From Candidatus Aenigmatarchaeota archaeon (GTDB lineage: Archaea; Aenigmatarchaeota; Aenigmatarchaeia; JACPZZ01): DNA of 64,000 nucleotides. The notes beneath the pieces are model-generated. The model was not told the DNA's origin. It searched no databases and saw only the letters and a program-made list of their open reading frames with translations. Positions 15,728 to 56,733 of this stretch are shown here, piece by piece. Numbering within the stretch: the stretch's first letter is position 1; each line of letters begins with the position of its first letter. The position numbers and the translations under genes were made by a program. The stretch covers positions 21,581 to 85,580 of the forward strand of contig JACPZZ010000017.1 of NCBI GenBank assembly GCA_016195275.1, given 5' to 3'.

Positions 15728-15748
15728 TTCTTGAATAAGCCTCAGGCG
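15728..15748. repeat. attL: 21-bp direct repeat agcctcaggcgagaattgaac (copy of tRNA-Thr 3' end)
   Basis: Identical 21-mer occurs at 56631-56651, where it forms the T-loop/acceptor 3' end of tRNA-Thr. Confidence 0.75.
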
Positions 15749-15850
15749 AGAATTGAACAATTGTCTACCTTACGTGCGTACTTGCTTGAGCAAGTCGCGT
15801 AGGAGGCGAGGTAGAGTCATCATTCCTATTGGCGCTGTCGGCTCATAAGT

Positions 15851-16597
15851 TTGATGCTCAAACCCTTGCATCCACAAAGCGGCAATCGTCCAAGACCGGA
15901 AGCGACGCCTACCAGCCAGGTAGGAGATGACGGTTCGAATCCGCCTTGCCGCATTTCTCTGCGTCTCTGTTCTGACAGGCAGGACTTCGAGGCGTTCCGC
16001 TGGATCATCGACACGTACCACACTTACAAGCCTTGGAAGCCTTCTCCCGGCAGGAAGATCTGCTGGCTTATTGAACGCGAAGGCGAGACCATCGGCTCCA
16101 TCGCAGTCCATAGCGCCGTGCTCACAATCAAGCCGAGAGAAGACTTCATTGGATGGGACCAGAGACAAAAGCTTGTCAACTTGAACAAAGTAGCCAACAA
16201 CTATCGTTTTGCACTCATTGAGCGGGGCGTTGGCTCTCGTGTGCTATCCGAGCTGGAACGTGAGGCCAAACGGGAATGGAAACGGAAATACGGCGATCCG
16301 CTCGTCCTGTTGGAAACTTTTGTCCAGCCGCCCTATGAAGGCACATCGTACAAAGCCGCGAACTGGACCTACATCGGTATGACCAAGGGCTTTGCTGTGA
16401 GGCGCGCCCCCGTCTCATTGTGGAAACGCGCGGGGGGCGAGAGAAAGAAGTTGTGGGAGTCCGATCCACATGCTGCGGCGAAACTGTACGCGGGCTGGAA
16501 TGGCGGCCAGCTTGTCAAAGTCACTCCGACTCCGAAGAAGCACATCTTCGCGCGCCCGCTGCATCGGTATTGGAGACGAGAGTTGCTGCGCGTCTAA
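15851..16597 (+). CDS. hypothetical GNAT-like protein (possibly DUF4338-like), likely 5'-truncated or with mis-assigned start
   Basis: 248-aa ORF; ERGVGSRVLSELEREA resembles GNAT motif A (RxxGxG); the annotated N-terminus overlaps a tRNA-like sequence (15879-15953) and has no in-frame alternative start until far downstream. Confidence 0.4.
   Translation: MMLKPLHPQSGNRPRPEATPTSQVGDDGSNPPCRISLRLCSDRQDFEAFRWIIDTYHTYKPWKPSPGRKICWLIEREGETIGSIAVHSAVLTIKPREDFIGWDQRQKLVNLNKVANNYRFALIERGVGSRVLSELEREAKREWKRKYGDPLVLLETFVQPPYEGTSYKAANWTYIGMTKGFAVRRAPVSLWKRAGGERKKLWESDPHAAAKLYAGWNGGQLVKVTPTPKKHIFARPLHRYWRRELLRV
15879..15953 (+). other. degenerate tRNA-like sequence (Gly-GCC-like) just inside attL
   Basis: 7-bp perfect acceptor stem GCGGCAA/TTGCCGC, anticodon hairpin CCTAC-CAGCCAG-GTAGG, T-arm GACGG-TTCGAAT-CCGCC, discriminator A; mismatches in the D and T stems and A33 suggest a pseudo-tRNA or element-borne tRNA. 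Confidence 0.45.
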
Positions 16598-18850: not shown

Positions 18851-21800
18851 CTACGCGGGTGGGGCTTTTGTTAATGCCTGATTGTAGAGGGACAGAAAAT
18901 GGGCTGGGACACTGATACCCAGCTCTGTACGGGCAGCCTTAATGTAGCGCTCCAGATATTTCAGTGATCCGAACCGGTCTCCTAATTTCAGACAAGTCTC
19001 TGCTAGTAGATAATTTGCTTCCTCATTATAGGGGTCCGACTCGACGAGCTTTTCCAGTACCTCAACAGATCGACCCAACTCACCTCTAGCGGTATAGTAT
19101 TTGGCAACGTTCATAAGTGCACGAATGTATTTTATCTCTAGAGAAGTACGTAAACTTTGACACCAGTCTGAGTAGAATTCATTCAGGAAAGGACCTATGT
19201 ACATCTCCATTGCCCTGAGCAGATTCTCCTCTTTGACAGGGCTTTCTTCCTCACATCGCTCAGCAGTCCTTAGGCTTTCTTCAAAGACCTCAAGGTCGAA
19301 ATCTACAGGGCTCTCGGGATTGAAGCAGTATCCATCACCTTTTGAGAGCACGCACCCTGGATAAAGAGCTTGTCTAAGGCGATAGATATTCATCTTTGAT
19401 GCAGCCGCAAAGTTCTCAAGGGTAACATCCGGCCATAGAGCTTCGATGATCTCCTCCTTGGTCACCACTCTTTTGGTACAAAGGAGAAAGTAGAAGAGTT
19501 CCTTGGCCTTGCGGCTTCTCCATTCGGAATCTGTTACCTCGTGTTTGCCCAGGAAAACACTGGCTTGCCCAAAGCTAAAGACCTTCAACGGAGGCAGCGA
19601 TCTCTGAGCAGGAGACGTAGTTCTGTCCGGCTCTGTCAGTTGTGCTCTTTCACTCATTCGTCTCGCTAGTCTCGTGAAAACTCCACCTGCCCCCTTTGCT
19701 GCACCGAATTGAACAAGCTCTGAAACCTGAGCACCATCTGCCAAAAGGAAACCCTCGTAACCGAGTCTTTGCGTGATGTGGTCAAGTTCTCGTAGGCAGA
19801 CTAGGGCTTCCCGAACTTGAGTCAGTTTATAAAAGACAAGTCCCTGGTGCAGTTTTGCCTCTGCCAGGCCCCTTTGACTTCCTACCTCACCGAACATCGC
19901 CTTTGCATCCCCTAGATGCTCTGTAGCCTCTTCAAACGAGCCCATCTGGCAATACACTTTGCCAAGCGAGAGGTGATAGCGAGCGCAGATGTATCTTTCC
20001 CCCGATTGCTCGGCATCGGGAATAGCTTGTTGTAATAACGCCTCAGCTTTGGATAACTCGCCTAAATCTCGATAAGTGTTTCCAAGGCCGTTCACAGCTT
20101 CAGCGATAAGTCGCTGGTCAAGAATGCTCCGGGCCATCTCTAGCCCTTCCAGGAGGCTCGTCAAGGCATCATGGTGGAGCCCGTTAGCTCTCTGCATGAT
20201 CCCTCTGGTGATCAGGACAAAAGCCTGCGTCCAACGTTCTCCAACGGCACGCGCTACTTTGAGAGCTTCGGTAATCTCATCGAGGGCAATATCGAAGTCC
20301 CCTAAATAGTAGTAGACATTGGCGAGGTTATTAAGGGTTAACGGCAAAGCGGTGTTGTTCTCCAGCTTCAACCAGCCCTGTCGTGCCTTCTCTAGATACA
20401 TAGATGCTTTATTCAGTTCTCCTGTCTCGATGTGTACAGCAGCTAGGCCATCATTTATCGTAGAAATGAGCGGCAGATTCTGCTGCGGAGCAATGTTTGA
20501 GGCCAACTCGAAATATTCTTTCGCTCGTTGAAATTCGCCTAGGCCAGCCAGGGCGCTGGCGAGCTGGCGATACGCTTCCGACAGATCCTCTGCCCTTGCA
20601 TTATGTGATCTCAGCACTGCGATGCCCTGCTCCGCTATTTTGACGGCAGCATCAAGCCTTCCCAGAGCCCTGGAAGCAGACGCCTTGTGGACCAGCACCC
20701 GTCCGGCGGTTGCCCAATCGTTTCCCTCTGCTATTGCAGTAGCTTTATCGAATTCTTCCATTGCCCGGGCAGGGTCGCCTGACCTGAGTAACACTGCCCC
20801 TCTAACCATCAGGATATGGGGGTCCCTCTCAGACAACTCGCGAGGAAGGAGATCTAGCCAGGCAGTCAGGGTCTGCCACTTTCGTTCCTGAAGGTATCTG
20901 TCAGCCACCTGTCTGATTATTTGGGCCGCCCCTTCTGCTTCGCCAGCCTTTGTCAGATGTCTGATAGCTGCATCGTGGTTTCCCACCTGCTGGAACAGGG
21001 AGCCTGCTCTCTGGTTAAACGCCTTATATGACTCAGGTTTCTCACTACTGAACTTCCTTTCCAGATATTCCCTGAAAAGGTCATGGTACCTGTAAACCGA
21101 GTCTTCACTGCCACGTTCCTCAAGGAACAGGCCTCTCTCTTTTATCTCGTGGATCAACTGACTGGAATGAGCTAGGTTAAGCAGATTGTCACAGAGCCTC
21201 ACACTGAACTCTTTCAGGATGGACGTTTGCAGAAGGAAAGATTTGAGACGTTCGGGAAGCCCATTGAAAACTTCCTGGGTCAAGTAATCGAAGAAGACAC
21301 TTTCATTGAGGCTGGCTAAAGTCGGCGATAGAGCGTCTCTTGAGCGTGTCCTGGCGGTCAGCAATACACCTGTGACCCAGCCACCAGTACGCGTGGCTAC
21401 TTCTTGAGCTTCTTCTGTTGGCACGGACCTTTCCCAGACACTGGATAGGGCTTCAGCGATTTCTTCCACAGAAAGGCGCAGAGTCTCGTTATCAAGCCAG
21501 GAGACGTCATCTTGGGCTACAAGTTTAGGTAGACAACTAATAGACGGCTTTGTTCTGCTTGCAATGAGGAAGTGGACATTGGACGGGGAACGCTCTATGA
21601 GTAAAGACAGAGCTTCTTTCAATGCTGACTTTGTATCTATGTGGTGTACGTCATCAAATATGAAGAGTAATTTGCCCTCAACCTTGTTATGAAACGCAGT
21701 TACCAGCAGGCCAACCAGGGTGCGCCAATCTGCCGTGGACGTTCGTATGAGCCAATTCACATCCCCTTTATTACCATCCTTAAACCGACTTTCAAGGGTT

Positions 21801-22057
21801 CTTACACAATATCGGAGAAACTCTAGAGGTTCATTGTCTTCAGGAGTAAAGGAGTACCAGCACACCGGAAAATCTGAATCTGAGATAAAGTCCACGAGTA
21901 GAGTTGTTTTTCCGTAGCCAGCAGGTGCCCAGAGAATCTGAACTCTTCTGTCGAGACCTGATTTTACAATATCAAGCGGCTTCGTCCGGCGGATAATACC
22001 TTCCCGCCGCTTCGGTATAAGGATCTTCGTGATGAACGGTAAATCAGTGGTTATCAA
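18851..22057 (-). CDS. MalT-like STAND ATPase - TPR repeats - C-terminal SARP module (OmpR-type wHTH plus BTAD)
   Basis: 1068 aa; N-terminal Walker A ILWAPAGYGKTTLL as in MalT/LAL regulators; extensive TPR-like helical repeats; C-terminal LKVFSFGQASVFLGKHEVTDSEW...LWPD (trans_reg_C) plus a BTAD-like helical tail. Confidence 0.75.
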   Translation of the reverse strand: MITTDLPFITKILIPKRREGIIRRTKPLDIVKSGLDRRVQILWAPAGYGKTTLLVDFISDSDFPVCWYSFTPEDNEPLEFLRYCVRTLESRFKDGNKGDVNWLIRTSTADWRTLVGLLVTAFHNKVEGKLLFIFDDVHHIDTKSALKEALSLLIERSPSNVHFLIASRTKPSISCLPKLVAQDDVSWLDNETLRLSVEEIAEALSSVWERSVPTEEAQEVATRTGGWVTGVLLTARTRSRDALSPTLASLNESVFFDYLTQEVFNGLPERLKSFLLQTSILKEFSVRLCDNLLNLAHSSQLIHEIKERGLFLEERGSEDSVYRYHDLFREYLERKFSSEKPESYKAFNQRAGSLFQQVGNHDAAIRHLTKAGEAEGAAQIIRQVADRYLQERKWQTLTAWLDLLPRELSERDPHILMVRGAVLLRSGDPARAMEEFDKATAIAEGNDWATAGRVLVHKASASRALGRLDAAVKIAEQGIAVLRSHNARAEDLSEAYRQLASALAGLGEFQRAKEYFELASNIAPQQNLPLISTINDGLAAVHIETGELNKASMYLEKARQGWLKLENNTALPLTLNNLANVYYYLGDFDIALDEITEALKVARAVGERWTQAFVLITRGIMQRANGLHHDALTSLLEGLEMARSILDQRLIAEAVNGLGNTYRDLGELSKAEALLQQAIPDAEQSGERYICARYHLSLGKVYCQMGSFEEATEHLGDAKAMFGEVGSQRGLAEAKLHQGLVFYKLTQVREALVCLRELDHITQRLGYEGFLLADGAQVSELVQFGAAKGAGGVFTRLARRMSERAQLTEPDRTTSPAQRSLPPLKVFSFGQASVFLGKHEVTDSEWRSRKAKELFYFLLCTKRVVTKEEIIEALWPDVTLENFAAASKMNIYRLRQALYPGCVLSKGDGYCFNPESPVDFDLEVFEESLRTAERCEEESPVKEENLLRAMEMYIGPFLNEFYSDWCQSLRTSLEIKYIRALMNVAKYYTARGELGRSVEVLEKLVESDPYNEEANYLLAETCLKLGDRFGSLKYLERYIKAARTELGISVPAHFLSLYNQALTKAPPA

Positions 22058-30607: not shown

Positions 30608-31017
30608 GCTGAACCTCCTATCTGGCTCTTACCTTGGCAAATTGGGCAAACTGCTGACCCTCCGCTCATTTGGGCGCAGCGTGAGCAGGCCTGGCGGCCG
30701 CACACGCATCTGAAACGGGGTGCGCAGTACGTGCAGAGAATGAAGCCGTCGAACATGCACATCGACCCGGCTTCAGCCTCGGACTTTATGAGATCGCCCG
30801 TCCCGGCGCACGTCGCCACCTGAATCTGGGTCTCGTTGATGAGCACTCCGTCTTCGCGGAGGTCAACGACCTGCACCTCCGCGTACGGTGATCTGCCGAT
30901 ACCTGCCGGCCCAATCGGCACCATTCGTCGCACAGTTACGGTTCGCACTGGCTGTGTCACTTCGCTAGGTCTTCCGAAACTCACCCCTGGCACGTTGTTG
31001 GGGTTTGGCGTTACCAT
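30508..31017 (-). CDS. Cys-rich small protein, paralog 3 (divergent)
   Basis: 169 aa; preceded by AGGAGGTG RBS; central Cys cluster CTYCAPRFRCVCGRQACSRCAQ...CPICQG. Confidence 0.5.
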   Translation of the reverse strand: MVTPNPNNVPGVSFGRPSEVTQPVRTVTVRRMVPIGPAGIGRSPYAEVQVVDLREDGVLINETQIQVATCAGTGDLIKSEAEAGSMCMFDGFILCTYCAPRFRCVCGRQACSRCAQMSGGSAVCPICQGKSQIGGSAWNSTRGWALGPGNQAWSVPTWQTTQSTSRWTT

Positions 31018-31027
31018 CGTTCACCTC

Positions 31028-31354
31028 CTAGTAATGGTCCATCTCAGGTGTTCGGCCCGGATTCAACAATCGCTGCATCGAGACGTGGTCAGGCACGAAC
31101 TCTGGGATGCTGCTAGTCAATCGCGGCGACTGAAGCACTGGCGAAAGCGGCGGACGCCTGGTGGGTGACACGCGCCGATTCAGCATACCTTCGAGCGAGT
31201 TCCTATAAAGCGCCCTCGCTTCAAAATCTCGGTTCGGATAGACCCTGTTCCTGTTCGGCCTGTTGGCGTACGAGACCTTATGAGCTTGTCTCGCCTTAGC
31301 TGCCTTCGCTCTCTGCTTCTTGTAGACCCACCACGGGACTTTTCGGTTGGACAT
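31028..31354 (-). CDS. basic low-complexity protein
   Basis: 108 aa, Lys/Arg/Pro-rich; AGGAGGTGAAGG 8 nt upstream of the ATG. Confidence 0.45.
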   Translation of the reverse strand: MSNRKVPWWVYKKQRAKAAKARQAHKVSYANRPNRNRVYPNRDFEARALYRNSLEGMLNRRVSPTRRPPLSPVLQSPRLTSSIPEFVPDHVSMQRLLNPGRTPEMDHY

Positions 31355-31364
31355 CCTTCACCTC

Positions 31365-31598
31365 CTAGAATCCGTCGCATGACTTGTATCCGGACCTGAC
31401 GCAGAACACGCACGCCCTAGCCTTGACCATCTGCTCGCCGCAGCCAGGACAAGCCTCGCCATCGCCAGACGCAACGCCGACATCTACACGAGGTCCGCCA
31501 CCATCGCCACCCTCGGTAGGGAGACGAACGTTGCTGTTGCGGATGCCAATACTGGAAATCCTCGTCCCTTCCTTTTGAGCCTCCATAGGCGTCTCCAA
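31365..31598 (-). CDS. small zinc-ribbon protein
   Basis: 77 aa; CPGCGEQ...CVFC ribbon; same strand and spacing as the operon. Confidence 0.4.
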   Translation of the reverse strand: METPMEAQKEGTRISSIGIRNSNVRLPTEGGDGGGPRVDVGVASGDGEACPGCGEQMVKARACVFCVRSGYKSCDGF

Positions 31599-32206: not shown

Positions 32207-32408
32207 ATATTTGTCCTCGGGGGTTCTTATGCATTACGGTCCCTGTTGCTTGACACTCTTGGTCGTGGGGGGTAGCATAGATTTGGCTTCTCCGACTCGG
32301 CATTGTCGCCGAAAACTTGTCCACGCCACCACTATAATCTGAAGTGCCTGCTGCGGTGCCGCAGGAAAACCGCAGACCGCCGCAAAACAACCGCAAAAGA
32401 GGTCGAGC

Positions 32409-35400
32409 ATGGCAAGCCAAGGTCGTCCTCACACCAGAGCTCCGTGGAAAGACAAGATCCTGATTTGGCAGGAATACTATAGGAACCGAGTCATTAAACG
32501 AGTGGCTGAGGACCTCAGCTTCCAAAAGGCGGATGGCGAATGGTATGGCTATAGCGAGGACACCGTAGCAAGAATAATCAAGGAGTTGGACTACATCTCC
32601 GAAGAAGATGCGGCGAGTCTGTCATCAGAGATTCAAGAACTCAGACGTAGCCGTACACAGGCACCAAACCAACAGGCGTCGCCACAACAAATCGGTCAAC
32701 AATCAGACTACAAAGTTGATTTGCAAGCACTCCGGCAGTCTTGTTCGGATGGGCTCAGGGCTCACCTTGATCGGCATTCGGTAGAGTTTAATAGCAAAAG
32801 CTACGTACCACGCGCCGCCATTGAAGGGGAATTCCGCGAGTTCTTAGATTCGACAAAGCTTTGTTTTCCCATCATTGGCGAAGCAGGCATGGGCAAGACA
32901 ACTTTGCTTTGCCATTTAGCAGACGAGTACTCGCATAGAACCGAACAGCACCCAGACCATTTAGTTTGGGTGTTGTCCGCGAGACCGCTGGCCAATATTC
33001 GCGATCACCCGTTGCGTACGGCGGTAGGCGAGGAAGCGACGGACGTGGGAGCTGCGATCAAGAGCCACCTCTCACGGCACCTCAGCATGGTCGATGTCAC
33101 TAAGAGATCAGAGGTTGACTTCACGGAGGTCGTGGAAGCTCTCTATCGTGAGTTAAGAGACACCGGCGACAAGAAGTTCATCGTGTTAATCGACGCGCTG
33201 AACGAACACCCCCAGGCTGACAAGCTAATTGCATCGCTGGACTCAGCGGTGGCAAGCCTCGCGGACCTCTCCGATGAACTCGATGGCCTCTCAAGGCGCT
33301 TCAAGATCTGTGTGACGTGCCGACCATATTCGTGGCACCGGGCTATCAGCGAAGAACTCCATAGCAGGATCAGGTATTCCCATTATCATGCCCTGCAAGA
33401 GCAGAACTTATTGCCCCAAGTGACTCTTGGAGAATACTCAGAGCAGGAGCTTCAAACGATTTACGAAGGGACAAAGGTTATCACAGACGATGGGAGACGA
33501 TCGGAGTTGCGCCCGGAGTTCACAGCCTTGAAAAGGGACGCCCCCAAGTGGATCAATCGACTATCCGACCCCTACCTGTTCGCCTGCGCGATAGAGGTGG
33601 CAAGGAAGAATGACGGTTATATCCCTCTAGGCTTAACCAAGGCTCAAATGCTGAGAGCCTATATCGACCGGCTGACCAACAATGACAAAGTAGCGCAGAG
33701 ACTCCTCGCGGAAATAACAGAGCGCATGCGGGTGACCATGAGTCCCCAACTGACTCGGCGCGAATTGGAGAGTTGCGCGCAAAGGCTCACCTTGGACCTC
33801 GATGCTCCTGACTCCCCCTATAACCGTCTGATAGATGCAGGAATTCTCCAAGAGTTGAACGATGCGACGAACGACCCGACCCAACTAGCGGTGGGTATCC
33901 GCAACGACCGCATCCTGGAGTACCTCTTGTATGAGCGTCTCAAGCTGCTTCAGCAAGATGTTACGCACATCCGCGATACGCTGATACAAGCGGAATTGTA
34001 CCCTCAGTTGTGGGCTGCCTTGCATACCCTATTCGTTGAAGACTGGGATCAAGCCACCGTTAGTCAACTGGCCGCCATCCGCAACGAGGACCAAACGGCC
34101 CCCGTCGTTGTTCGGGCCTTTATTCCAGGCGTATGTCGCGAAGTGTACAAAGACCGGCCGAAGGAGGTGAATGACCTCGTCCAGACTCTCTTGAAGTCGA
34201 GCGACAATGTGGCATTGATGATGGCAGTGGCGGTTGCCTATACTGTCAAGGACACGGACGGTCTGCTTCAAGCGTTGCAAAACAAGAGCTTAGTTGCACA
34301 GAGACTGGCCATCCAATACTCGTATCTTTTTTGGCGGGCTCACCGTAAGAATGGCTACGCCCTGTTAAACAGATTAAGTGACCGAATATCCGTGGCACCT
34401 GATAGGAAAACAATCCAAGCGTTCGTTGACCTTAGCGTGGCGATCGGAACCAAGCATTTTCGACAACCAGAAATCCGAGAGGAAATTATTGCACTGGCAC
34501 AACGCACGGCTCACGGGTTGATGCACCCCGATCTGAGGAAATCCGGGTTGAATCCCGCCCAGAGGATGAAGAGGCGAGCCGCTAGCTTAATCCTTCGAGC
34601 ATCAACGTCGTTTGCCGGTGGTCCTCTCGTCAATGCAGCGGCTGTTTACTTGGAGAAAACGCTCCGTGTCGCCGAGGACAACAACACCATAGGTAACTAT
34701 TCGGACGTAGCCGCCTTCTTCAAACACGTGCCGCCCCGCGATAGACACCCATATAAAGTGCTGTTGAATTTTTGGGGGCCAGAAGAAGCCAATCTCGTTA
34801 AATTGCGAAACATCATTTGTGATTTGGCGCACAGGCAAGATGGTGTGTTCTACTCCCTCGCAGCCGGGGCTTTGGTCATCCAAGCCTACTATCGACCCGA
34901 AGCTGCACTCAAGATGTTCAATGAGGTTTACGATAGTGCCGAGCAGAATGCGCTTCAAAAACGGCTGGTGCTACGGGCGTCCGATGTCTTGTCTCCACTG
35001 GCCAGCGGAAAGCATCTGAACTCCCAACTCCGGTCCCACAGCGACCTAGTCCGGAGGTTCATCGATGAAACAGCAGGCCGGTGCACCGTGGCAGGCCACA
35101 ATCGGACCATGTGCGGAGTACCGCTTTATCACACTTCGTTAGTAGAAGTTTCTTCACGCGGTAGCTTGACTATCCTGCCCGACGCTATTACTAAAGCTCT
35201 GGTACGGAATGACCCCGAGCTGCTCGTGTCATTAGCTGAAGTTATTAACCAAATGGTCTGGTATATTGAGCCAGAACGCGTCCTCTCACTCAGGGAGTCA
35301 CTGCTTTGGCTACTCGCTTACGGGGACAATCCCCAAGGGAACGTGTACCAAGCTGCGCTGCGCACCGTTGCCACCTTAGCTCTGATATATCCGGATGCAG

Positions 35401-35675
35401 GTGAAGACGTCATTGCAGCAATCGCCAACAAAGAGGAACGGCAACGAGTCAGGAGCGGACTCAAACGCATTGCGGCGGACGAATTGGTCACCCCCGTGAG
35501 CGTTTACTTGGGCGGGATGCACGATGCGGGCATATATACGCTGCTTTCGTCTGACGGTGACGCAGTACGACGATTAGTCGTCGAGATATTGAACGCCGGA
35601 TTGAACGAGAAAACCGTACATGGTCTCATGCGGCTAGTTGCGCGTAGGAGCCTTAAACTATTGCAAGCTACGTAG
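32409..35675 (+). CDS. NACHT-like STAND NTPase with long C-terminal HEAT/ARM-like helical repeat region
   Basis: 1088 aa; about 150-aa N-terminal region, Walker A CFPIIGEAGMGKTTLLCHL, Walker B FIVLIDALNE; more than 600 aa of helical repeats. Confidence 0.75.
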   Translation: MASQGRPHTRAPWKDKILIWQEYYRNRVIKRVAEDLSFQKADGEWYGYSEDTVARIIKELDYISEEDAASLSSEIQELRRSRTQAPNQQASPQQIGQQSDYKVDLQALRQSCSDGLRAHLDRHSVEFNSKSYVPRAAIEGEFREFLDSTKLCFPIIGEAGMGKTTLLCHLADEYSHRTEQHPDHLVWVLSARPLANIRDHPLRTAVGEEATDVGAAIKSHLSRHLSMVDVTKRSEVDFTEVVEALYRELRDTGDKKFIVLIDALNEHPQADKLIASLDSAVASLADLSDELDGLSRRFKICVTCRPYSWHRAISEELHSRIRYSHYHALQEQNLLPQVTLGEYSEQELQTIYEGTKVITDDGRRSELRPEFTALKRDAPKWINRLSDPYLFACAIEVARKNDGYIPLGLTKAQMLRAYIDRLTNNDKVAQRLLAEITERMRVTMSPQLTRRELESCAQRLTLDLDAPDSPYNRLIDAGILQELNDATNDPTQLAVGIRNDRILEYLLYERLKLLQQDVTHIRDTLIQAELYPQLWAALHTLFVEDWDQATVSQLAAIRNEDQTAPVVVRAFIPGVCREVYKDRPKEVNDLVQTLLKSSDNVALMMAVAVAYTVKDTDGLLQALQNKSLVAQRLAIQYSYLFWRAHRKNGYALLNRLSDRISVAPDRKTIQAFVDLSVAIGTKHFRQPEIREEIIALAQRTAHGLMHPDLRKSGLNPAQRMKRRAASLILRASTSFAGGPLVNAAAVYLEKTLRVAEDNNTIGNYSDVAAFFKHVPPRDRHPYKVLLNFWGPEEANLVKLRNIICDLAHRQDGVFYSLAAGALVIQAYYRPEAALKMFNEVYDSAEQNALQKRLVLRASDVLSPLASGKHLNSQLRSHSDLVRRFIDETAGRCTVAGHNRTMCGVPLYHTSLVEVSSRGSLTILPDAITKALVRNDPELLVSLAEVINQMVWYIEPERVLSLRESLLWLLAYGDNPQGNVYQAALRTVATLALIYPDAGEDVIAAIANKEERQRVRSGLKRIAADELVTPVSVYLGGMHDAGIYTLLSSDGDAVRRLVVEILNAGLNEKTVHGLMRLVARRSLKLLQAT

Positions 35676-37235: not shown

Positions 37236-38288
37236 TTGTCGGGTGTAACTGCCAGATACGGGAATTCAAAAAGCGCAAAGATGGAGTACAAAACTGTAAG
37301 GGACAACAGGACACATAACCCAATAGGTCGGTTAGGGTATAATGTTAGTAACAAGTTGAACTTTGAGATTGTGTTGTCGGGAGTGGCAGCCGCCGTAAGG
37401 CGAATGGAGATCAGGTTGACGATGCCTGCTCAAACGGAGGGGGTCAATTTGATACATCATCTGACCCTTACTGGTCTACTTGTTCTATTTTTTCTCATTG
37501 CATCGGCTTGTGCTCAGCCTACGCCCACCACAGCACCTACACTTACTCCGGCACCTGTACTGACCCCACCCCCTATCCCTAGCCCAACTTCTCCACCCAT
37601 GCCTGGTCCGACACTAACAGGACCTACATTTACCCCATCACCTACCCTGACCCCTACTCCCACTTTGACACCTACAGTTACATCAGCCCCTACTCCCACC
37701 CCTACTACCAAGGCACCAGGTGTAGTCTCTGGTTCATCAGGGGAAGTTTCGGCGGACGGCAAGGTACTAGCAGCCTTGATAGGTGCTCTCGGAGCGGGAG
37801 GAGCTGCTTTGATCGTAGGCGCAGTCAACTTTTTCATGAACAGGAGAGCACTACGCCAGCAAGCTGAGGCGCTGAAGAAAACACTGGATCACCAAGAAAA
37901 GGTTCTGGCTCTACAGGAGAAGGCCTTGGAAAGAACATCGAACCAAGAAACGGCTGCATTAAGGGCTGAATATACGAAATTACATACTGAAAATGTCCTG
38001 AAGGTATATCAGGATGTTTCTAAGCAATTAGCTCTTTTCCGTGCTTATTTGGAGGGAAAGGAGCCTGCTTCAAGTCTACTAGGCGTAATTGAGACCTTTT
38101 ATTGGGCTTATCCCTTCTTAGGTCAAGATACCATTAACGAATTTGACACGAAAATCGTCCCACTAGCCTTAGACCCAGAGAAGCTTCGAGACCTTGACTA
38201 TCCTCGACTTCAGTTACTCCTAGCCGATGTCCTTGAAAAGGTGCGGAGCGATGTGGATGCTATCAAGAGAGGAGAACCGAAAATATGA
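37236..38288 (+). CDS. Pro/Thr-rich membrane-anchored protein with C-terminal coiled coil
   Basis: 350 aa; TM (LTGLLVLFFLIASACA), about 100-aa PT-rich linker (PTPTTAPTLTPAPVLTPPP...), second TM, helical C-terminal domain; the true start may be the internal MEYKTV. Confidence 0.55.
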   Translation: MSGVTARYGNSKSAKMEYKTVRDNRTHNPIGRLGYNVSNKLNFEIVLSGVAAAVRRMEIRLTMPAQTEGVNLIHHLTLTGLLVLFFLIASACAQPTPTTAPTLTPAPVLTPPPIPSPTSPPMPGPTLTGPTFTPSPTLTPTPTLTPTVTSAPTPTPTTKAPGVVSGSSGEVSADGKVLAALIGALGAGGAALIVGAVNFFMNRRALRQQAEALKKTLDHQEKVLALQEKALERTSNQETAALRAEYTKLHTENVLKVYQDVSKQLALFRAYLEGKEPASSLLGVIETFYWAYPFLGQDTINEFDTKIVPLALDPEKLRDLDYPRLQLLLADVLEKVRSDVDAIKRGEPKI

Positions 38289-40983: not shown

Positions 40984-41664
40984 GTGATTGTCATGAAATT
41001 GAGGCAGTTTTACGAGGATTTGCAGGACAGATGGGCAGGCAGCCTGGTCAAAGTTCAGTATTTGGACCATCCTCACGCCAAGGAATACATGTACCGGTTA
41101 GCTAGAGAAGGCTTGGTGGAAAATGTTGCATGGGGCTGGTACTGGGTGCCAGCTCAGTTGGAAGATGTTTGGGACTTTCTCGCCAACGATAAAAACTTCA
41201 AAGTGATTGCTGGCCAGACTGCTGCCTCTCTCTGGAATGGAGACTTTGTTCACCGCGAGCTCTATCTGGTAAAGGTTAAGGATCGCTCTTACGGCCAAGC
41301 ATTAAAGGCCTTTGGTGAAGGAAAGGGCTGGGACCTTGAGGTAGAAGTAGCCCGCAAACCTCCAGCCTACACCAAGATTGACGGCCTGCTGGTCGAGACC
41401 ATCGACGAGACTATCCTGGACTGCCTGAGCAGGTGGGCTTTTCTGGATGCCTTTGCCATTCTGCATGAACATCCGGAGATAGATTTCAGAACAGTGGCAA
41501 AACAGGGCTACTGGCAACGCTTGCCCGGCACACACATCAGGCTGAAACCGGTGCTGGAATACGGGTATTCCAGACTCACAGGACGCAAGAGTAGACCGCT
41601 GGCAGACCCATTCGTGGCGAGGGAAGTGGAAGAAGCGGTGGAAAAGGTGATGGAGATTGGCTAG
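40984..41664 (+). CDS. AbiEi-like antitoxin / transcriptional regulator (type IV TA, abortive infection)
   Basis: 226 aa; N-terminal wHTH-like region; immediately upstream of, and overlapping (8 nt), an AbiEii-type nucleotidyltransferase. Confidence 0.55.
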   Translation: MIVMKLRQFYEDLQDRWAGSLVKVQYLDHPHAKEYMYRLAREGLVENVAWGWYWVPAQLEDVWDFLANDKNFKVIAGQTAASLWNGDFVHRELYLVKVKDRSYGQALKAFGEGKGWDLEVEVARKPPAYTKIDGLLVETIDETILDCLSRWAFLDAFAILHEHPEIDFRTVAKQGYWQRLPGTHIRLKPVLEYGYSRLTGRKSRPLADPFVAREVEEAVEKVMEIG

Positions 41665-42394
41665 ACAGCTCAGGCTTGCCCATGCCCGGGAAGAGGTGAT
41701 TGCCGACCTTCTTAACAGGTTGGCCGAAAAGTCGCATGGCTTCAGTTCACCTAAACTGGTCCTCATCGGCGGATATGCCTTGAGGGCGTTTGTGCCCTTG
41801 TCCAGGTCCACCCGGGATTGCGACTTTGCCCTGCGGAAAGGACAGGATTGGCAGATTGACAGAATCCGCACATGGTTCTCAGACCTTGAGGTGCTCACTC
41901 TAGAGAAAAGGGATGACCATGGCTTTATGCGCTGCTTGAAGCTGATCAGAATCAATGACAGTACAGCCAGGGTCTCATTGGACTTCATGGAAGACAAAGT
42001 GGTGGGCAGAGATATGGAAGAGGTCATCAACTTGGATGCGAGGTTTGAAGGGGATGCCCAGAATGTGCGTATTACCATTGCCAACCAGCCAATTGATGTG
42101 GTGGTGCCATGCTACCGCGACTATTTCATACTGAAGGCCGTATCTGCCAGAAGAAGCGATATCCGTGATATAGCTGCGCTGGTGTGGAAGCTGGGCGTGC
42201 CTGAAGTGAAGCCAAGGTTAGAGGAGATACTGCCTTATCCCGATGTTTTTTACCGGAAGGTCAGGGAGGTCATCATTCCCGACATCGAGGATACCAGATT
42301 TATCCACTCGTGGCGCGGCACGTTTGTCACGACTGCGTTCTCTGAACAAGATAAACAAAATGTGATTGATGAGCTGAGGGAATTGTGCGGGTGA
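41657..42394 (+). CDS. AbiEii/AbiGii-family nucleotidyltransferase toxin (DUF1814-like)
   Basis: 245 aa; VLIGGYALRAF...TRDCDF polymerase-beta-type NTase motif (GG...DxD) in the position typical of AbiEii. Confidence 0.65.
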   Translation: MARQLRLAHAREEVIADLLNRLAEKSHGFSSPKLVLIGGYALRAFVPLSRSTRDCDFALRKGQDWQIDRIRTWFSDLEVLTLEKRDDHGFMRCLKLIRINDSTARVSLDFMEDKVVGRDMEEVINLDARFEGDAQNVRITIANQPIDVVVPCYRDYFILKAVSARRSDIRDIAALVWKLGVPEVKPRLEEILPYPDVFYRKVREVIIPDIEDTRFIHSWRGTFVTTAFSEQDKQNVIDELRELCG

Positions 42395-43968: not shown

Positions 43969-45015
43969 TCACCCTTCCTTCTTAACTCTCAACAGCCTGA
44001 TGTTACCCCTCATGTCCGCGCGCTCGCTCTCGATCAGTCCCACCGAGATTAAAGTTGCCACATACGCGGAAAATGTGCGCGAGGCGACCGGCCTCTTGCC
44101 AATATCCGAGCAATGCCTCAAGTAACCTTGCCACAACGTGTTGGAAAGCATACCTTCAGATCCTGAACCTTTGATTAGCTCGAATATGGCCCTGTGGTGC
44201 TCGGTCAGGCTCTGGAGCAGGTAACGCTGCTCCAGTTCTCTGGCAGACGTGAATCCTGACTCAACGTGTTGCGCCAGGATGACCCGGCTTCTGTCGGATT
44301 CAGCCAGCTCCGCAGCGTTGTTCAAGGTTTGAATCGCTACTCTGGCATCGCCGTCGGATAGCGATGCGATCCTGCCCAGCGTTTCCTGATCCCAGGAACC
44401 GGAAACAAGCGCTTCCCTTGCCCTCTGCTCAACCATGCCTACAAGCTCTTCGGCACTGTACGGCTCGAAAGCGATCTGCCTTAACGCAACCCTTGATAAA
44501 ACCCTCGGGTCCACATTCATCAAAAAGTAGCGCGAATTACAGATGGCGACCAACCCTACGCTGCCGATCCTTGCAAGGTTGTAGAGAATGGCATTTCTCT
44601 CTTTCGGGGCGGGTTTGTCTATCTCGTCCAGGACGATGACGAAAGGTTTGTTGCCGATGCTCCTTTCAAAGCGTTCCAGCTTCAAAGCCGCCTCGGTTTT
44701 GTCGGCGAACATGATGCGAAGCTCTTTGACAATCTCATCAGCCACCAGGTACAGGGAGTTGTGCTTCCACCAGTTTATGTAAACAGATTGGATAGGAGAC
44801 TCTCGCCTCAGGCGTTGCAGGGCCCACCGGGCCACAGCGGTCTTGCCTGTTCCAGGATTACCGTACAGCCAGATATTAACAGGCTTCCGGTGTTTCAATG
44901 CCGGAGCGAGGCGTAGATTAAGCTGATGGATTTGCTCCTCCCTGCCTGACAAGGACGCCGGCATATATTCTTCTGAAAGGACCGCAGGCTCCCTGATGAT
45001 GCGAATCTCTTCCAT
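43969..45015 (-). CDS. Orc1/Cdc6-family AAA+ replication initiator with C-terminal winged helix
   Basis: 348 aa; Walker A LYGNPGTGKTAVA, Walker B VVLDEIDK, sensor ICNSRYF, C-terminal wH; archaeal plasmid/virus-type initiator. Confidence 0.85.
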   Translation of the reverse strand: MEEIRIIREPAVLSEEYMPASLSGREEQIHQLNLRLAPALKHRKPVNIWLYGNPGTGKTAVARWALQRLRRESPIQSVYINWWKHNSLYLVADEIVKELRIMFADKTEAALKLERFERSIGNKPFVIVLDEIDKPAPKERNAILYNLARIGSVGLVAICNSRYFLMNVDPRVLSRVALRQIAFEPYSAEELVGMVEQRAREALVSGSWDQETLGRIASLSDGDARVAIQTLNNAAELAESDRSRVILAQHVESGFTSARELEQRYLLQSLTEHHRAIFELIKGSGSEGMLSNTLWQGYLRHCSDIGKRPVASRTFSAYVATLISVGLIESERADMRGNIRLLRVKKEG

Positions 45016-51505: not shown

Positions 51506-52852
51506 CTATTCAGTTGTCCGACCGCAGGTCGACACTTCGACATCGCTTCTCTTCTCACTGATCCTTTTGGCCGCCATCTGCACGTATTCCGGCTTGAGGT
51601 CCACGCCCCCGAAGTTACGGCCAAGCGCGGCTGCCACAACACCGACTGTTCCAGACCCCATGAACGGGTCGAGCACCAGCGCGGGCGCAATTTCCGAACC
51701 TGAGCATTGGCAGGTAGCCTGCCATCCCAGGGTGCGCGTCGTCCTGAGTCTTCTCACTTCATAAGGCCGGGCAGCACCCCCCAGAAGCGGCACGCCTTTT
51801 CGAGTCATGTTGTTGTTCCCCCGGCCAGCGTCCACATAAGAGACGGAAACTTTTCGGCGCCGGGGAGCGCCACATGAAGAACAGCATCCTGCCTCGCTGC
51901 TGCCAGTCAGGATGCACCGCCTTGCCAGCGCCTCCGGAAACGTTGCGAAATGCGCACCAGGAAAGGGCTGTGTCGGAATGGTCCACACGCTACGAATGTT
52001 CCTGCCCCGACCGTCGTCCGACCACGGTACGCAGCTCGCGATGTGGCGGTTCGTTCTCGACCGCTCCCCAAGTTTGGCAACGAAGCGCCGAACATTCCCG
52101 CTGCTTTTGTCCTTCTCTACGACAGGCTCCCTGGCAGCCTCCTGGTCGAACAGATAGGTCGCGCTTTTGGTCAGCAAGAAAACGTACTCGTGCGCCTTGG
52201 TGGGTCTGTCGCGCACGCTCTCCGGCATGGGATTCGGTTTTGCCCAAATGACATCGGATCGAAGCCACCACCTGTCCGCCTGCAAAGCGAACGCAACACG
52301 CCAGGGCATACCCACAAGGTCCTTCGGCTTGAGGCCGGAACCTTTGCGGTTGTACGGCCTGAGATAGGTATCGCCTTTCTTCCCGTCCCTGAAGTCGCCG
52401 CCAGGAGAACCGCTGCCCGCGTAGCAGTCACCCAGGTTCAGCCAGAACGTCCCGTCGCTTCTGAGAACCCGCCAGACTTCCCTGGCCACCTCGGTGATGT
52501 GCTGGACGTACATCTCCGGTGTATGCTCCAACCCAAGCGATCCTCGCCACGCAGTGCAGAGCGAGCAGAAAGCACTGGGTTGTGGCGCACACGCGGTAGC
52601 ATGGACCTTGCCAGGATCAAATCGGCCTCCACTGTACCAACCGTTCGTATTTCCTCCGCTTCCTAACTTCGTGGACGGAGGCTTACCATTGCCCCATTGA
52701 TGAACGCATCCGGCATCGCCTCCCCAAACGCTCGGCGGCAGACCGTAATCGCGCAACCCCCAATACGGCGGGCTGGTTACCACGCAATGGACGCTTCCAT
52801 CTTTGAGAGGGAGGTGACGAGCGTCACCGACATATAGTTGGCTCCGGAGCAA
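51506..52852 (-). CDS. DNA methyltransferase, N6-adenine/N4-cytosine type (beta class; motif IV before motif I)
   Basis: 448 aa; VVTSPPYWGLRDY (motif IV, SPPY) near the N-terminus and LDPFMGSGTVGVVA (motif I) near the C-terminus; no adjacent restriction endonuclease recognised. Confidence 0.8.
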   Translation of the reverse strand: MLRSQLYVGDARHLPLKDGSVHCVVTSPPYWGLRDYGLPPSVWGGDAGCVHQWGNGKPPSTKLGSGGNTNGWYSGGRFDPGKVHATACAPQPSAFCSLCTAWRGSLGLEHTPEMYVQHITEVAREVWRVLRSDGTFWLNLGDCYAGSGSPGGDFRDGKKGDTYLRPYNRKGSGLKPKDLVGMPWRVAFALQADRWWLRSDVIWAKPNPMPESVRDRPTKAHEYVFLLTKSATYLFDQEAAREPVVEKDKSSGNVRRFVAKLGERSRTNRHIASCVPWSDDGRGRNIRSVWTIPTQPFPGAHFATFPEALARRCILTGSSEAGCCSSCGAPRRRKVSVSYVDAGRGNNNMTRKGVPLLGGAARPYEVRRLRTTRTLGWQATCQCSGSEIAPALVLDPFMGSGTVGVVAAALGRNFGGVDLKPEYVQMAAKRISEKRSDVEVSTCGRTTE

Positions 52853-53718: not shown

Positions 53719-54714
53719 ATGCTTATGGACGCAGCAAGTGCTCTCAAACTCTTTAATGAGAAGGCAAAGAAGTTAGAAGGCCTCAGCTTCACAAAAATGC
53801 TGGCTGAACAGAAAACAGGCGTCACGCTCTCAGGGAAACAAGGGCATCCTTTAACCATAGAGCGCTCCGGCCCCGGCGATGAAGCCATAGATGCTTTCGT
53901 ACTTACACTGAGATTCTTCGTCCAGGACAACGAAAGTATATCACTGAGGAATTTCGCACATCTTTACGCGGGTCTACCTGTTGATCAGGAACTGATTGAC
54001 AACTTCAACGCTGCCAGGGACGCCTTGAACAGCTTTCTCGACAACAAGCCGCTCGTCGTTGTCCTTGATGAGATCGACAAGGCCCAGCCCAAGGACCAGA
54101 GCTCCATCCTCTACACGCTTTCGGAGCTTGAGAACGCAGGAGTCGTTTGCATTTCCAACAGCCGCGCGACCCTTCTGTCTCTTGATGACAGGGTGAAGTC
54201 GCGGCTGAACTCAGTCTTCATCGGCTTCGACCCGTACAACAATGATGAACTTCGACGCATCCTCGAGGCCAGGGCAGGGCACGCGCTCTTTCCTGGCTGT
54301 TTTGTGCCGGAGATTCTTGACCGGATTGCCGGACTTTCTGGTGGCGATGCCCGTGTCGCAATTCAAACGCTGAGACAGGCCGCGCAGCTAGCCGAGGTCC
54401 AGGGCACCCGCACCATCGCTGCTGACCACATCGAGCACGGCGTTGTCACCGTGCGCACCCTGCGGACCCAGTATGCCCTGAACAAGCTGACTGAGCATCA
54501 CCGCATACTGTTCACTATCGTCTCCTCTGCCCGTGAGATCACGAACATCGCGCTGTGGGTAGCCTACATCGAGAAATGCAAGGAGACGAGCAAGACTCCG
54601 ATTGCTGATCGCACGTTTCGGGCCTATCTGAATACCCTGGTCTCGCAGGGCCTCGTGTTGAGGGAGCGCTTGGCCGAGCCTGGCGCTCTGTTCCGTTTCC
54701 GGCCGTGCGCGTGA
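53719..54714 (+). CDS. Orc1/Cdc6-like protein lacking the Walker A P-loop (degenerate paralog)
   Basis: 331 aa; Walker B VVVLDEIDKAQPKDQSSILYTL, sensor ISNSRATLL, GGDARVAIQTL and C-terminal wH all align to Cdc6; no GxxGxGKT, and an in-frame stop lies just upstream of the ATG. Confidence 0.6.
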   Translation: MLMDAASALKLFNEKAKKLEGLSFTKMLAEQKTGVTLSGKQGHPLTIERSGPGDEAIDAFVLTLRFFVQDNESISLRNFAHLYAGLPVDQELIDNFNAARDALNSFLDNKPLVVVLDEIDKAQPKDQSSILYTLSELENAGVVCISNSRATLLSLDDRVKSRLNSVFIGFDPYNNDELRRILEARAGHALFPGCFVPEILDRIAGLSGGDARVAIQTLRQAAQLAEVQGTRTIAADHIEHGVVTVRTLRTQYALNKLTEHHRILFTIVSSAREITNIALWVAYIEKCKETSKTPIADRTFRAYLNTLVSQGLVLRERLAEPGALFRFRPCA

Positions 54715-55382: not shown

Positions 55383-56582
55383 TTAAGCCTTCAACAGTTT
55401 CGTCTTCAGAATCTCTTCTACGCGCACCTCTATCATCTTGTCGATCATTTCGGGTGTCAGGAGTTTTAGCACCTGCTGCTCTCTGTCCTCCAACTCAAAC
55501 AGACCCTTCACCGAGATCGCTCTGCTGCACTGGACACAAAAATCCGCACTTAGCGAGTTTTCAGTTTTGCAGAACGTGCAAACCGTAGTGCTAACGACCC
55601 CGAGGGCACGCTTCTCTCGCTGTTCGATTGAGTGCTGTTTCAATACATACTCCTCAACTTGCTTCTCTGCCAGGTGTTCATAGAATCTGAATGCCTTGCT
55701 TTCTACCGAGTGCCCTACGAGTTTCTTTATCATTATCTCGTTCCATCCAGCTTCGAGCAGATGTGTGATCCTGCTGTGCCGTAGAAGATAGGAGTACACT
55801 CGCTTCTCCATACCTAACTTTTTGGCCGTCCTCTTGAGAGTGACGTTGAATCCCTCCGGTTGTAGAAACTGCTTGGTTAGGTAGCTCACATAGCTTGACG
55901 GAAAGAGAGGCGCATTCTGATCGCGCCTCAATGGGTGGACGTTGAGCCAAGCCCTCAAATAGCGATCAGAGTCCATTGCGAAGATCGTCCTCGTGAAAGT
56001 CTTGCTCTCCCGCAAGAAAATCCTTGTGTACCCTTCTGTGGATTTGAGACTTCCAACAGTAAGGGTGAGCAACTCCGATGGTCTTGCTGCGGTTTCATAC
56101 GCAAGCGCAAAAAGACATTTGTACATCGGACTGTGGACCGCGTTAACAAGTTGTTCCACTTCATCCTTGGTTAGCAGGTCGTTGTAGGTGATATCGAATT
56201 TCCTCGGCCCGTTTCTTTTCGTCTTGATCCAACGATATTTCTCAGGATTGAAGCTGTCACCCAGAACAAATTTCAGGAGTCGCTTCACCGCAATCTTGTA
56301 GTCATTCATTGTCCATGCCGCAAGACCTCGCGCGGTGATTTGCGCGAGTGCCGCCTCAATATCTCGGTTGTCGAGGTCGGCGTAGTCTTTCTTCATGGCA
56401 ATGGTGAGGTCGCGTAGGAGGATCAGATACTTCTTGATGCGGCCAAGAGAGATGCCTTCGGCGCGGAGCCTCTGTGCAAAGGCTGCCAGGGTCTCTGCGT
56501 TGTTGGGCGAGATTTCCGGCATGACGCGAATCTGGCACAGCACACGCTCGTAATCCTTGTTGCTCCTATAGAACGAATCCAT
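55383..56582 (-). CDS. int: tyrosine recombinase / integrase with C-terminal zinc ribbon
   Basis: 399 aa; N-terminal SAM-like core-binding domain, catalytic region with LRHSRITHLL (HxxR) and downstream Tyr; C-terminal CTFCKTEN...CVQC; adjacent to tRNA-Thr/attR. Confidence 0.85.
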   Translation of the reverse strand: MDSFYRSNKDYERVLCQIRVMPEISPNNAETLAAFAQRLRAEGISLGRIKKYLILLRDLTIAMKKDYADLDNRDIEAALAQITARGLAAWTMNDYKIAVKRLLKFVLGDSFNPEKYRWIKTKRNGPRKFDITYNDLLTKDEVEQLVNAVHSPMYKCLFALAYETAARPSELLTLTVGSLKSTEGYTRIFLRESKTFTRTIFAMDSDRYLRAWLNVHPLRRDQNAPLFPSSYVSYLTKQFLQPEGFNVTLKRTAKKLGMEKRVYSYLLRHSRITHLLEAGWNEIMIKKLVGHSVESKAFRFYEHLAEKQVEEYVLKQHSIEQREKRALGVVSTTVCTFCKTENSLSADFCVQCSRAISVKGLFELEDREQQVLKLLTPEMIDKMIEVRVEEILKTKLLKA

Positions 56583-56630
56583 GCAATTACATGGGTCAGT
56601 CTGCTAATAAAAGATATACACTTGTTCAAA

Positions 56631-56651
56631 GCCTCAGGCGAGAATTGAACT
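56631..56651. repeat. attR: 21-bp direct repeat agcctcaggcgagaattgaac within the tRNA-Thr 3' end
   Basis: Identical to 15728-15748. Confidence 0.75.
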
Positions 56652-56733
56652 CGCGACCTTTACCTTACCAAGGTTTAGCGACAAACTTCGCTTGGAAATT
56701 CGTTAACGCTCTACCAACTGAGCTACTGAGGCG
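56631..56733 (-). tRNA. tRNA-Thr(GGU) with about 30-nt non-canonical intron in the 5' strand of the anticodon stem
   Basis: Hand-folded: acceptor GCCTCAG/CTGAGGC, D-arm GCTC-AGTTGGTA-GAGC, exon junction TTA|...|CC restoring anticodon stem TTACC/GGTAA, loop TTGGTAA (anticodon GGT), variable AGGTC, T-arm GCGAG-TTCAATT-CTCGC, discriminator U. Intron position 28/29 or 29/30, ambiguous by one A. Confidence 0.65.

Follow-up and report, generated by a model that had tools for sequence, protein, structure and literature searches.

We analysed a stretch of 64,000 nucleotides (hereafter the window) from a Candidatus Aenigmatarchaeota archaeon (GenBank assembly GCA_016195275.1, contig JACPZZ010000017.1, positions 21,581 to 85,580 of the forward strand). 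Our subject is a gene of this window for a protein of 1088 amino acids (aa), which joins the nucleotide-binding module of the NACHT branch of STAND ATPases to a long helical repeat region, and which is carried by an element integrated at a tRNA gene. The features are listed in Table 1. The coding sequence lies exactly where the initial annotation, a reading of the DNA letters and open reading frames, had placed it, and both the ATG start and the 1088 codons are confirmed. There is no in-frame start upstream of the ATG at 32409. The gene is monocistronic and alone on its strand, with one divergent and one convergent neighbour. Since a Shine-Dalgarno-like GAGGT precedes the ATG and the codon-position GC pattern of the first 100 codons is that of the remainder of the gene, the N-terminus of the protein is most likely translated. 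NCBI holds an identical protein, named 'MAG: NACHT domain-containing protein [Candidatus Aenigmarchaeota archaeon]', on a contig of 123 kb, and the genes that flank it come from the same metagenome-assembled genome (MAG). We gave no weight to a sigma-70-like promoter match at 32250-32278, since three such matches were found where 2.8 are expected by chance and the host is an archaeon.

Between about 16 and about 56 kb the GC content of the window is 0.49-0.59, up from 0.40-0.46. A 22-bp direct repeat marks the attachment (att) sites of an element whose ends coincide with these GC steps. The right copy of the repeat is the 3' end of an intron-containing tRNA gene, whose last 22 nucleotides read AAGCCTCAGGCGAGAATTGAAC on the plus strand, and the gene of a tyrosine integrase lies next to it. 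The repeat, the tRNA and the integrase together show the NACHT gene to be part of an integrated element of 40.9 kb whose att sites are defined. There is also a tRNA-Gly(GCC) gene just inside the left copy. From this position it appears to be carried by the element and is not the integration target. Its region is not repeated elsewhere in the window, and the att repeat belongs to the intron-containing tRNA.

Table 1. Positions in the window of the NACHT gene, the parts of its product, the limits of the element and other genes of the element
Feature	Positions	Strand	Basis or remark
Coding sequence of the 1088-aa NACHT-HEAT STAND protein	32409..35675, stop codon included	+	ATG start
Shine-Dalgarno-like GAGGT	32399..32403	+	5 nt before the ATG, read from the sequence
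Orphan helical module, aa 1-83	32409..32657	+	No homologue found
Q/P-rich low-complexity linker QAPNQQASPQQIGQQSDYK, aa 84-104	32658..32720	+	Read from the sequence
Conserved helical extension before the P-loop, aa 105-150	32721..32858	+	BLASTP, conservation, pLDDT 82-95
Nucleotide-binding domain, aa 151-330	32859..33398	+	Pfam NACHT, motifs
Helical and winged-helix domains of the STAND module, aa 331-512, limits approximate	33399..33944	+	AlphaFold2 model, hhalign, Foldseek
All-alpha HEAT/ARM-like solenoid, presumed ligand sensor, aa 513-1088	33945..35672	+	AlphaFold2 model, Foldseek
Left att copy, 22-bp direct repeat AAGCCTCAGGCGAGAATTGAAC	15737..15758		Exact match, blastn-short E 7e-7; GC rises here from 0.40 to 0.53
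Right att copy of this repeat, forming the 3' end of the target tRNA	56629..56650		Exact match
Intron-containing tRNA, 103 nt, integration target	56630..56732	-	Rfam RF00005, 52.9 bits; missed by ARAGORN
Tyrosine integrase	55383..56582	-	Pfam Phage_integrase E 4.5e-22; 47 nt from the tRNA 3' end
tRNA-Gly(GCC)	15879..15953	+	Within the element, about 120 bp from the left att copy
MalT-like STAND protein	18851..22057	-	NCBIfam MalT E 1.7e-69 over aa 10-420, then TPR repeats
P-loop ATPase, 719 aa	27740..29899	-	Weak AAA_10/HerA match at aa 103-152; PHROG large-terminase match, E 1.4e-10, aa 325-427
17-nt repeat	31015..31031 and 31352..31368
Protein of 350 aa with a Pro/Thr-rich tract	37236..38288	+	phrog_15511, E 1.7e-8
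Marginal AbiEi match	40984..41664	+	E 0.009
AbiEii/DUF6036-like nucleotidyltransferase	41657..42394	+	Pfam E 1e-6, PADLOC E 3e-5
Orc1/Cdc6-type protein	43969..45015	-
PNP_UDP_1 phosphorylase-superfamily protein, 420 aa	49110..50372	-	PADLOC 'Effector PN-superfamily' E 2e-9; also PDC-M60C
Type II N6/N4 DNA methyltransferase	51506..52852	-	E 3e-88
Orc1/Cdc6-type protein	53719..54714	+	Match confined to the lid and rear part of the ATPase

The NTPase core and the C-terminal solenoid

The protein is an intact NACHT-clade STAND ATPase of the NLR type. The Pfam NACHT profile (PF05729) matches aa 155-322 with 33.5 bits, above its curated cut-off of 26.7, and NPHP3_N is likewise above its own (29.3 versus 24.8). 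The motifs are complete: Walker A is GEAGMGKT (aa 157-164, within GEAGMGKTTLL at 157-167), Walker B is VLIDALNE (aa 259-266, within FIVLIDALNE at 257-266), the sensor-1 motif TCRP (aa 303-306, within ICVTCRP at 300-306) is typical of NACHT, and a DPYLF motif stands at aa 387-391. The NACHT-type P-loop and Walker B proposed by the initial annotation are thus genuine. A Walker A of the form GxxxxGK[ST] and a sensor-1 arginine in an [ST]xRP context, both marks of the NACHT clade, are present. R305 is part of the conserved family motif SCRxxxW, and the family alignment shows almost no variation at G160, G162, K163, D262, E266 and W309, nor at Y132, R135 and F145 in the helical extension that precedes the P-loop. 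The Walker B departs in one position from D[GAS]hDE, the signature of NACHT proteins given by Kibby et al. (10.1101/2022.07.19.500537): D262-A-L-N-E266 has the small residue and the last acidic one, but N where the first acidic residue would stand. This DAxNE form is the consensus of the family and occurs also in Avs2.

An AlphaFold2 model built with an alignment of 41 relatives has a mean pLDDT of 81.9 and a pTM of 0.77, and is confident over aa 105-1088. After the alpha/beta NTPase come helices at aa 371-443 and an alpha/beta winged-helix unit at aa 447-513. Foldseek searches of the PDB with the NTPase half of the model found NLRP3, NOD2, ORC/Cdc6 and Apaf-1, the alignments with NLRP3 and NOD2 extending over 550-670 columns.

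From aa 513 to aa 1086 the model consists of helical hairpins throughout, save for a single short beta hairpin at aa 891-900. The Foldseek matches of this C-terminal half in the PDB are karyopherins, PP2A PR65, AP2, MMS19 and CAND1, with probabilities of about 0.9-1.0 and low TM-scores, as is expected for flexible solenoids. The Pfam HEAT repeat is absent from the protein itself; HEAT_2 or HEAT matches occur in 9 of the 82 relatives surveyed with Pfam (see below), and among the matches of the family profile are designed alphaRep proteins, which are HEAT-like. We regard a HEAT/ARM-like solenoid of about 575 aa as a fair description of what the model predicts. The type of repeat proposed by the initial annotation therefore agrees with the AlphaFold2 and Foldseek results, and its length of about 600 aa is corrected to about 575 (aa 513-1088).

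Relatives and known systems

The protein is extremely rare. A phmmer search of 1.84e9 representative proteins returned only three at E <1e-30, one of which is the query and the other two fragments: P0005, from a contig of 2.1 kb (source SRR22388350), and P0006 (37% and 32% identity, respectively, over aa 447-1086). No relative was found when GTDB species genomes, JGI metagenomes and IMG/VR were scanned with patterns of the close family (alignment A2). Megablast against plasmids and an exact look-up of the protein in a contig index gave no match. The wider family comprises 267 representatives at E <=1e-3. They have 25-30% identity to the query and are mostly 1000-1400 aa long, and what they have in common is the NTPase and part of the solenoid.

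What varies among these relatives is the N-terminus. We surveyed the Pfam domains of 82 of them and found there TIR_2 in 13, HD-CE in 5, DUF4062, HSDR_N_2 and CHAT in 3 each, Mrr_cat and EAD7 in 2 each, and one case each of caspase, trypsin, SIR2, REase_MTES_1575, metallophosphoesterase, protein kinase plus TCAD9, and MraZ. If one domain per protein is assumed, at least about 34 of the 82 relatives (around 40%) carry a classical immune effector. By eye, the N-termini of the nearest full-length neighbours resemble HD, DUF4062, restriction endonuclease, trypsin and TIR domains. Lee et al. 2026 (PMC13581612) recognise defence-associated STAND clades by the high share of members with immune-related effectors, and such a share is found here in a clade defined by our list of phmmer matches, not by the published STAND tree. 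The shuffling of outputs on a constant chassis of NTPase and sensor is a hallmark of conflict-type STANDs. Since the relatives swap immune effectors, the clade is conflict-associated and not one of housekeeping regulators.

Other relatives have N-termini of a different kind. Those with a short N-terminus show coiled coils, EAD-like adaptors, transmembrane helices or segments that resemble a helix-turn-helix (HTH). Two proteins obtained by profile search combine DNA-binding domains with the NTPase: P0160, named in JGI as a DNA-binding winged-HTH protein, has by sequence inspection an OmpR-type winged helix followed by NACHT, and P0161 has Pfam HTH_3/HTH_19, NPHP3_N/NACHT and HEAT. By eye, P0095 is Xre-like at its N-terminus and P0151 has a winged HTH, and there is one MraZ fusion. 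Five of the closest full-length relatives (P0007, P0010, P0013, P0014 and P0019) have in common an apparently unannotated N-terminal domain of about 190-340 aa, in which the motif P-F/L-x-h-F/Y-E-x-C-x-E-C (with a CxxC) is kept; it is a candidate for an uncharacterised output or sensor domain of this STAND family.

Among solved structures, the best relative of the family profile is Avs2 (EcAvs2, PDB 9o4e), which it matches at E 3.1e-12 from the helix before the P-loop through the winged helix. The hhalign comparison with an alignment of six Avs2-like proteins, one of them annotated as Avs2, gave a probability of 99.7% and E 1.2e-25, for query aa 140-512 only. The resemblance extends to the Walker B (DA[IL]NE) and to the layout, in which one polypeptide carries an output that varies at the N-terminus and a large helical sensor at the C-terminus. 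The sequences thus point to a common ancestor of the two NTPases. The similarity ends, however, at the winged helix, and nothing aligns over aa 513-1088. Avs2 has an elaborate clade-specific TPR domain and a beta-rich 'C-terminal sensor' (PMC13601566; PMC13581612), whereas the query has a HEAT-like solenoid and the beta-rich end is absent from its AlphaFold2 model. Avs2 is also longer (about 1500 aa versus 1088 aa), and the PADLOC model of Avs2 matches the query with only 25.3 bits (E 7e-7), over aa 42-174 (profile positions 241-368 of 1504). Given this limit of the homology and the different sensor, the protein is, judging from these comparisons, not Avs2, nor is it any of Avs1-5 as modelled in PADLOC. 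It may work like an Avs, by analogy, and we draw no inference that it senses terminase as Avs2 does. Of the Avs-like sensor suggested by the initial annotation, the tripartite STAND layout and the homology of the NTPase with that of Avs2 stand, and membership of Avs1-5, with its partial PADLOC match of 25 bits, does not.

The bacterial NACHT proteins (bNACHT), which Kibby et al. divide into 25 NACHT clades, offer a second comparison. They resemble the query in having NACHT above cut-off and a succession of N-terminal output, NACHT and repeat sensor in one gene; Avs and bNACHT systems are both single-gene, and the published list of bacterial NACHT fusions includes HEAT repeats and HTH domains (10.1101/2022.07.19.500537). 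The query differs from them by its Walker B (DALNE versus D[GAS]hDE), its archaeal host, and an N-terminal module that matches no domain listed for them. A third comparison is with the HTH-NACHT proteins P0161 and P0160: they belong to the same NTPase family, have a helical C-terminal region of the same type, and begin with a short N-terminus, non-enzymatic and of about 80-110 aa, before the conserved helical extension. Their cores have only 23-30% identity to the query, with 16-30% of it covered, and their N-termini, unlike that of the query, are recognisable HTH domains.

Regulators of the MalT/AfsR type, finally, combine a STAND ATPase with a helical repeat sensor, as the query does. They have a DNA-binding output and undergo ligand-induced oligomerisation, which makes a functional analogy possible if the N-terminus of the query binds DNA. 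The query, in contrast, matches no MalT or SARP family in NCBIfam, lacks a domain of the LuxR or OmpR type, and has an NTPase of the NACHT type.

The N-terminal module and the function of the protein

The initial annotation treated the first 150 aa as one domain. BLASTP with the three word-index homologues, P0002 and P0003 among them, shows that the common core starts at query aa 95-106, and the phmmer search agrees. Hence only aa 1-83 and the linker at aa 84-104 are private to the protein. The region is in this way composed of an orphan module of about 83 aa, the linker, and an extension of about 46 aa (105-150) that belongs to the NTPase. In low-confidence models, the orphan module has helices at about aa 14-36, 50-59 and 65-83. 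Its first part is basic (8 K/R versus 2 D/E in aa 1-33) and its second part acidic (6 K/R versus 13 D/E in aa 34-83). The pLDDT is below 50 at aa 83-98 and below 65 for aa 1-83 in both AlphaFold2 models, and the structure prediction of the N-terminus suggested by the initial annotation yielded no confident fold, the single-sequence model of aa 1-152 being unusable with a pLDDT of 41.

Searches with aa 1-83 against Pfam, PHROG and the PDB gave nothing significant. A homologue is absent from a word index of 5.8e9 proteins, no match of the full-length search in the 1.84e9 representatives was anchored in this part, and tblastn of the module found no paralogue in the window. Neither did hhalign detect similarity to the N-termini of the relatives, those with HTH included. 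There is no detectable catalytic motif in aa 1-83 and no EAD or Death-like Pfam family. When Pfam matches with E up to 10 were considered, DUF3574 (E 0.004), BT_3535-like and HTH_36 (E 0.13) appeared, all under their cut-offs, and the PHROGs gave a single family of unknown function (E 0.005). A phmmer match in the PDB to PNPOx/PhzG (E 0.011) was set aside as chance, since the part matched is a strand region of a split barrel and could not fold alone. The DNA-binding HTH that characterises STAND transcription regulators was not found, its nearest approach being HTH_36. This alignment spans 17 residues and falls on YSEDTVARIIKEL, a segment that resembles an HTH recognition helix, and we treat it as a lead only.

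As far as can be seen from its sequence, the output module would be non-enzymatic. Since it is short and has no catalytic signature, an output by binding is more plausible than enzymatic killing, and the module would most likely bind DNA or a partner protein on clustering, rather than destroy nucleic acids or NAD+ directly. The HTH domains at the N-terminus of some relatives make DNA binding or an adaptor-like output as likely as a novel effector. To call it a candidate novel effector, as had been done, is thus an overstatement for what amounts to at most about 83 aa lacking a catalytic motif, a homologue and a confident fold. We hold it doubtful that aa 1-83 are a new NLR-like output of archaea that is activated by oligomerisation, either small and toxic or pore-forming, or DNA-binding, and that would switch the carrier element. 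Were this true, a DPANN symbiont with a reduced genome would possess a system of defence between elements, triggered by a rival virus.

The explanation that we favour, and hold to be probable with some reserve, is that the gene by itself encodes a conflict sensor that is NLR-like and belongs to the NACHT branch of STAND ATPases, and that it is carried as cargo by the 40.9-kb tRNA-integrated element of a DPANN archaeon. The HEAT-like solenoid (about 575 aa) would bind a protein of an invading virus or of a rival element, probably jointly with the helical extension at aa 105-150. Binding would release autoinhibition, upon which ATP-bound NACHT modules would oligomerise and bring the N-terminal modules together. 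We infer this succession of ligand binding, oligomerisation and proximity-induced output from the analogy with Avs2, Avs3, Avs4 and Avs7 (PMC13601566, PMC13581612) and with NLRs.

Several observations weigh against a conflict sensor. A recognised effector is absent, and aa 1-83 combine the lack of a homologue or motif with low model confidence. The defence models of PADLOC match the protein only as a partial Avs2 of 25 bits. Several relatives have genuine DNA-binding N-termini, which would fit a regulatory role equally well. The defence-like genes of the element lie about 5-16 kb away, and the small open reading frames adjacent to the gene are on the other strand and unannotatable. Lastly, the only close relatives are two fragments, which align over aa 447-1086.

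The foremost alternative, in our view unlikely, is a STAND transcription switch of the element, similar to MalT, AfsR or LAL regulators, in which the N-terminal 83 aa would be a divergent HTH. Ligand-driven oligomerisation of NACHT would then lead to DNA binding and turn genes of the element on or off, such as those for maintenance, excision or a toxic module. The strongly basic aa 1-33 would suit this role, whereas aa 34-83 are net acidic. The segment that resembles a recognition helix would suit it too, but the HTH_36 match is not significant and the putative helices 2 and 3 are spaced by about 12 residues instead of the usual 3-4. P0160, P0161, P0095, P0151 and the MraZ fusion do bear DNA-binding N-termini, yet hhalign relates none of the HTH ones to that of the query. 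An enzymatic signature is lacking, as expected for a switch, but so is a confident structure of the N-terminus in both models, and the protein has no MalT/SARP match in NCBIfam, unlike the other large STAND of the element.

We regard as improbable that the protein is a sensor-only or decayed NLR, whose effector was lost and whose N-terminus is a leftover, and which either acts through a separate helper, with an adaptor-type output as in sensor/helper NLR pairs or EAD adaptors, or is non-functional. The short, orphan and partly low-complexity N-terminus with its low pLDDT could be read in this way, but the 1088 codons are intact, the NTPase motifs are all kept, and a ribosome-binding site stands before the first 100 codons, which look coding. 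Other relatives with short N-termini have only coiled coils, EAD-like adaptors or transmembrane helices, while here no EAD or Death-like match was obtained in Pfam. The second large STAND gene of the element would be in keeping with a helper, but a paralogue of the N-terminal module, as a possible partner would have, is absent from the window. A housekeeping or non-conflict STAND ATPase, for instance a scaffold or chaperone-like HEAT protein present on the element by chance, is very improbable: defence and non-defence clades are interspersed over the STAND tree (PMC13581612) and HEAT solenoids are generic protein-binding scaffolds, but the protein is extremely rare (two others at E <1e-30 in 1.84e9; none in the GTDB, JGI and IMG/VR scans), it lies on an integrated element of foreign GC content, and immune effectors dominate among its relatives.

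The architecture, the family type and the logic of sensor, NTPase and output are already known. Since this overall logic is well established and hundreds of STAND clades (>500; the tree of PMC13581612 has 589) have been catalogued, the expected gain is incremental. What is new is the very divergent, near-singleton sequence, the orphan N-terminal module and the fact that an integrated element of a DPANN archaeon carries the gene. If active, the conflict sensor would be an archaeal addition, borne by a mobile element, to the NLR-like (Avs/bNACHT) sensors, which to our knowledge have been characterised almost only in bacteria. A genome-reduced DPANN archaeon would then gain such immunity through an integrated element. 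As both the sensor and the N-terminal module are uncharacterised, the ligand and output of the protein would count as new details.

The integrated element and its other cargo

The initial annotation described the gene as lying on a mobile element next to other defence-like cargo. The mobile element, with its att sites and integrase, and the defence-like genes are both there, but these genes are not adjacent: the AbiEii-like gene is at 6 kb from the NACHT gene, the PNP-superfamily 'Effector' gene at 13.4 kb and the type II methyltransferase gene at 16 kb. The AbiEii-like gene is overlapped upstream by the gene with the marginal AbiEi match, with which it probably forms a type IV toxin-antitoxin pair. 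The phosphorylase-superfamily and methyltransferase genes may be a defence module of the element.

The other large STAND protein of the element, which the initial annotation counted as a first NACHT protein, is MalT-like instead. Its P-loop is almost at the N-terminus, and neither an HTH nor an effector was detected in it.

Besides the tyrosine integrase, the element encodes a large serine recombinase and a DDE transposase. Two of its genes are of the Orc1/Cdc6 type, and the product of the one on the plus strand may be truncated or divergent. The 719-aa P-loop ATPase combines its weak AAA_10/HerA match with a PHROG match to large terminases. No portal or capsid gene was recognised in the element, and the small genes near that of the ATPase match nothing. 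The 350-aa protein ends in a coiled coil and also contains a hydrophobic segment and a long tract rich in Pro and Thr. It is probably a protein that the element encodes for the surface or the membrane.

Ribosome-binding motifs (GGAGG or GGAGGTG) precede many genes of the element and are not seen before the flanking host genes, whose GC content is 0.40-0.47. This contrast is in keeping with an element of foreign origin. The 17-nt repeat of Table 1 is the reverse complement of such a ribosome-binding motif and start codon, present in front of two consecutive genes of the minus strand.

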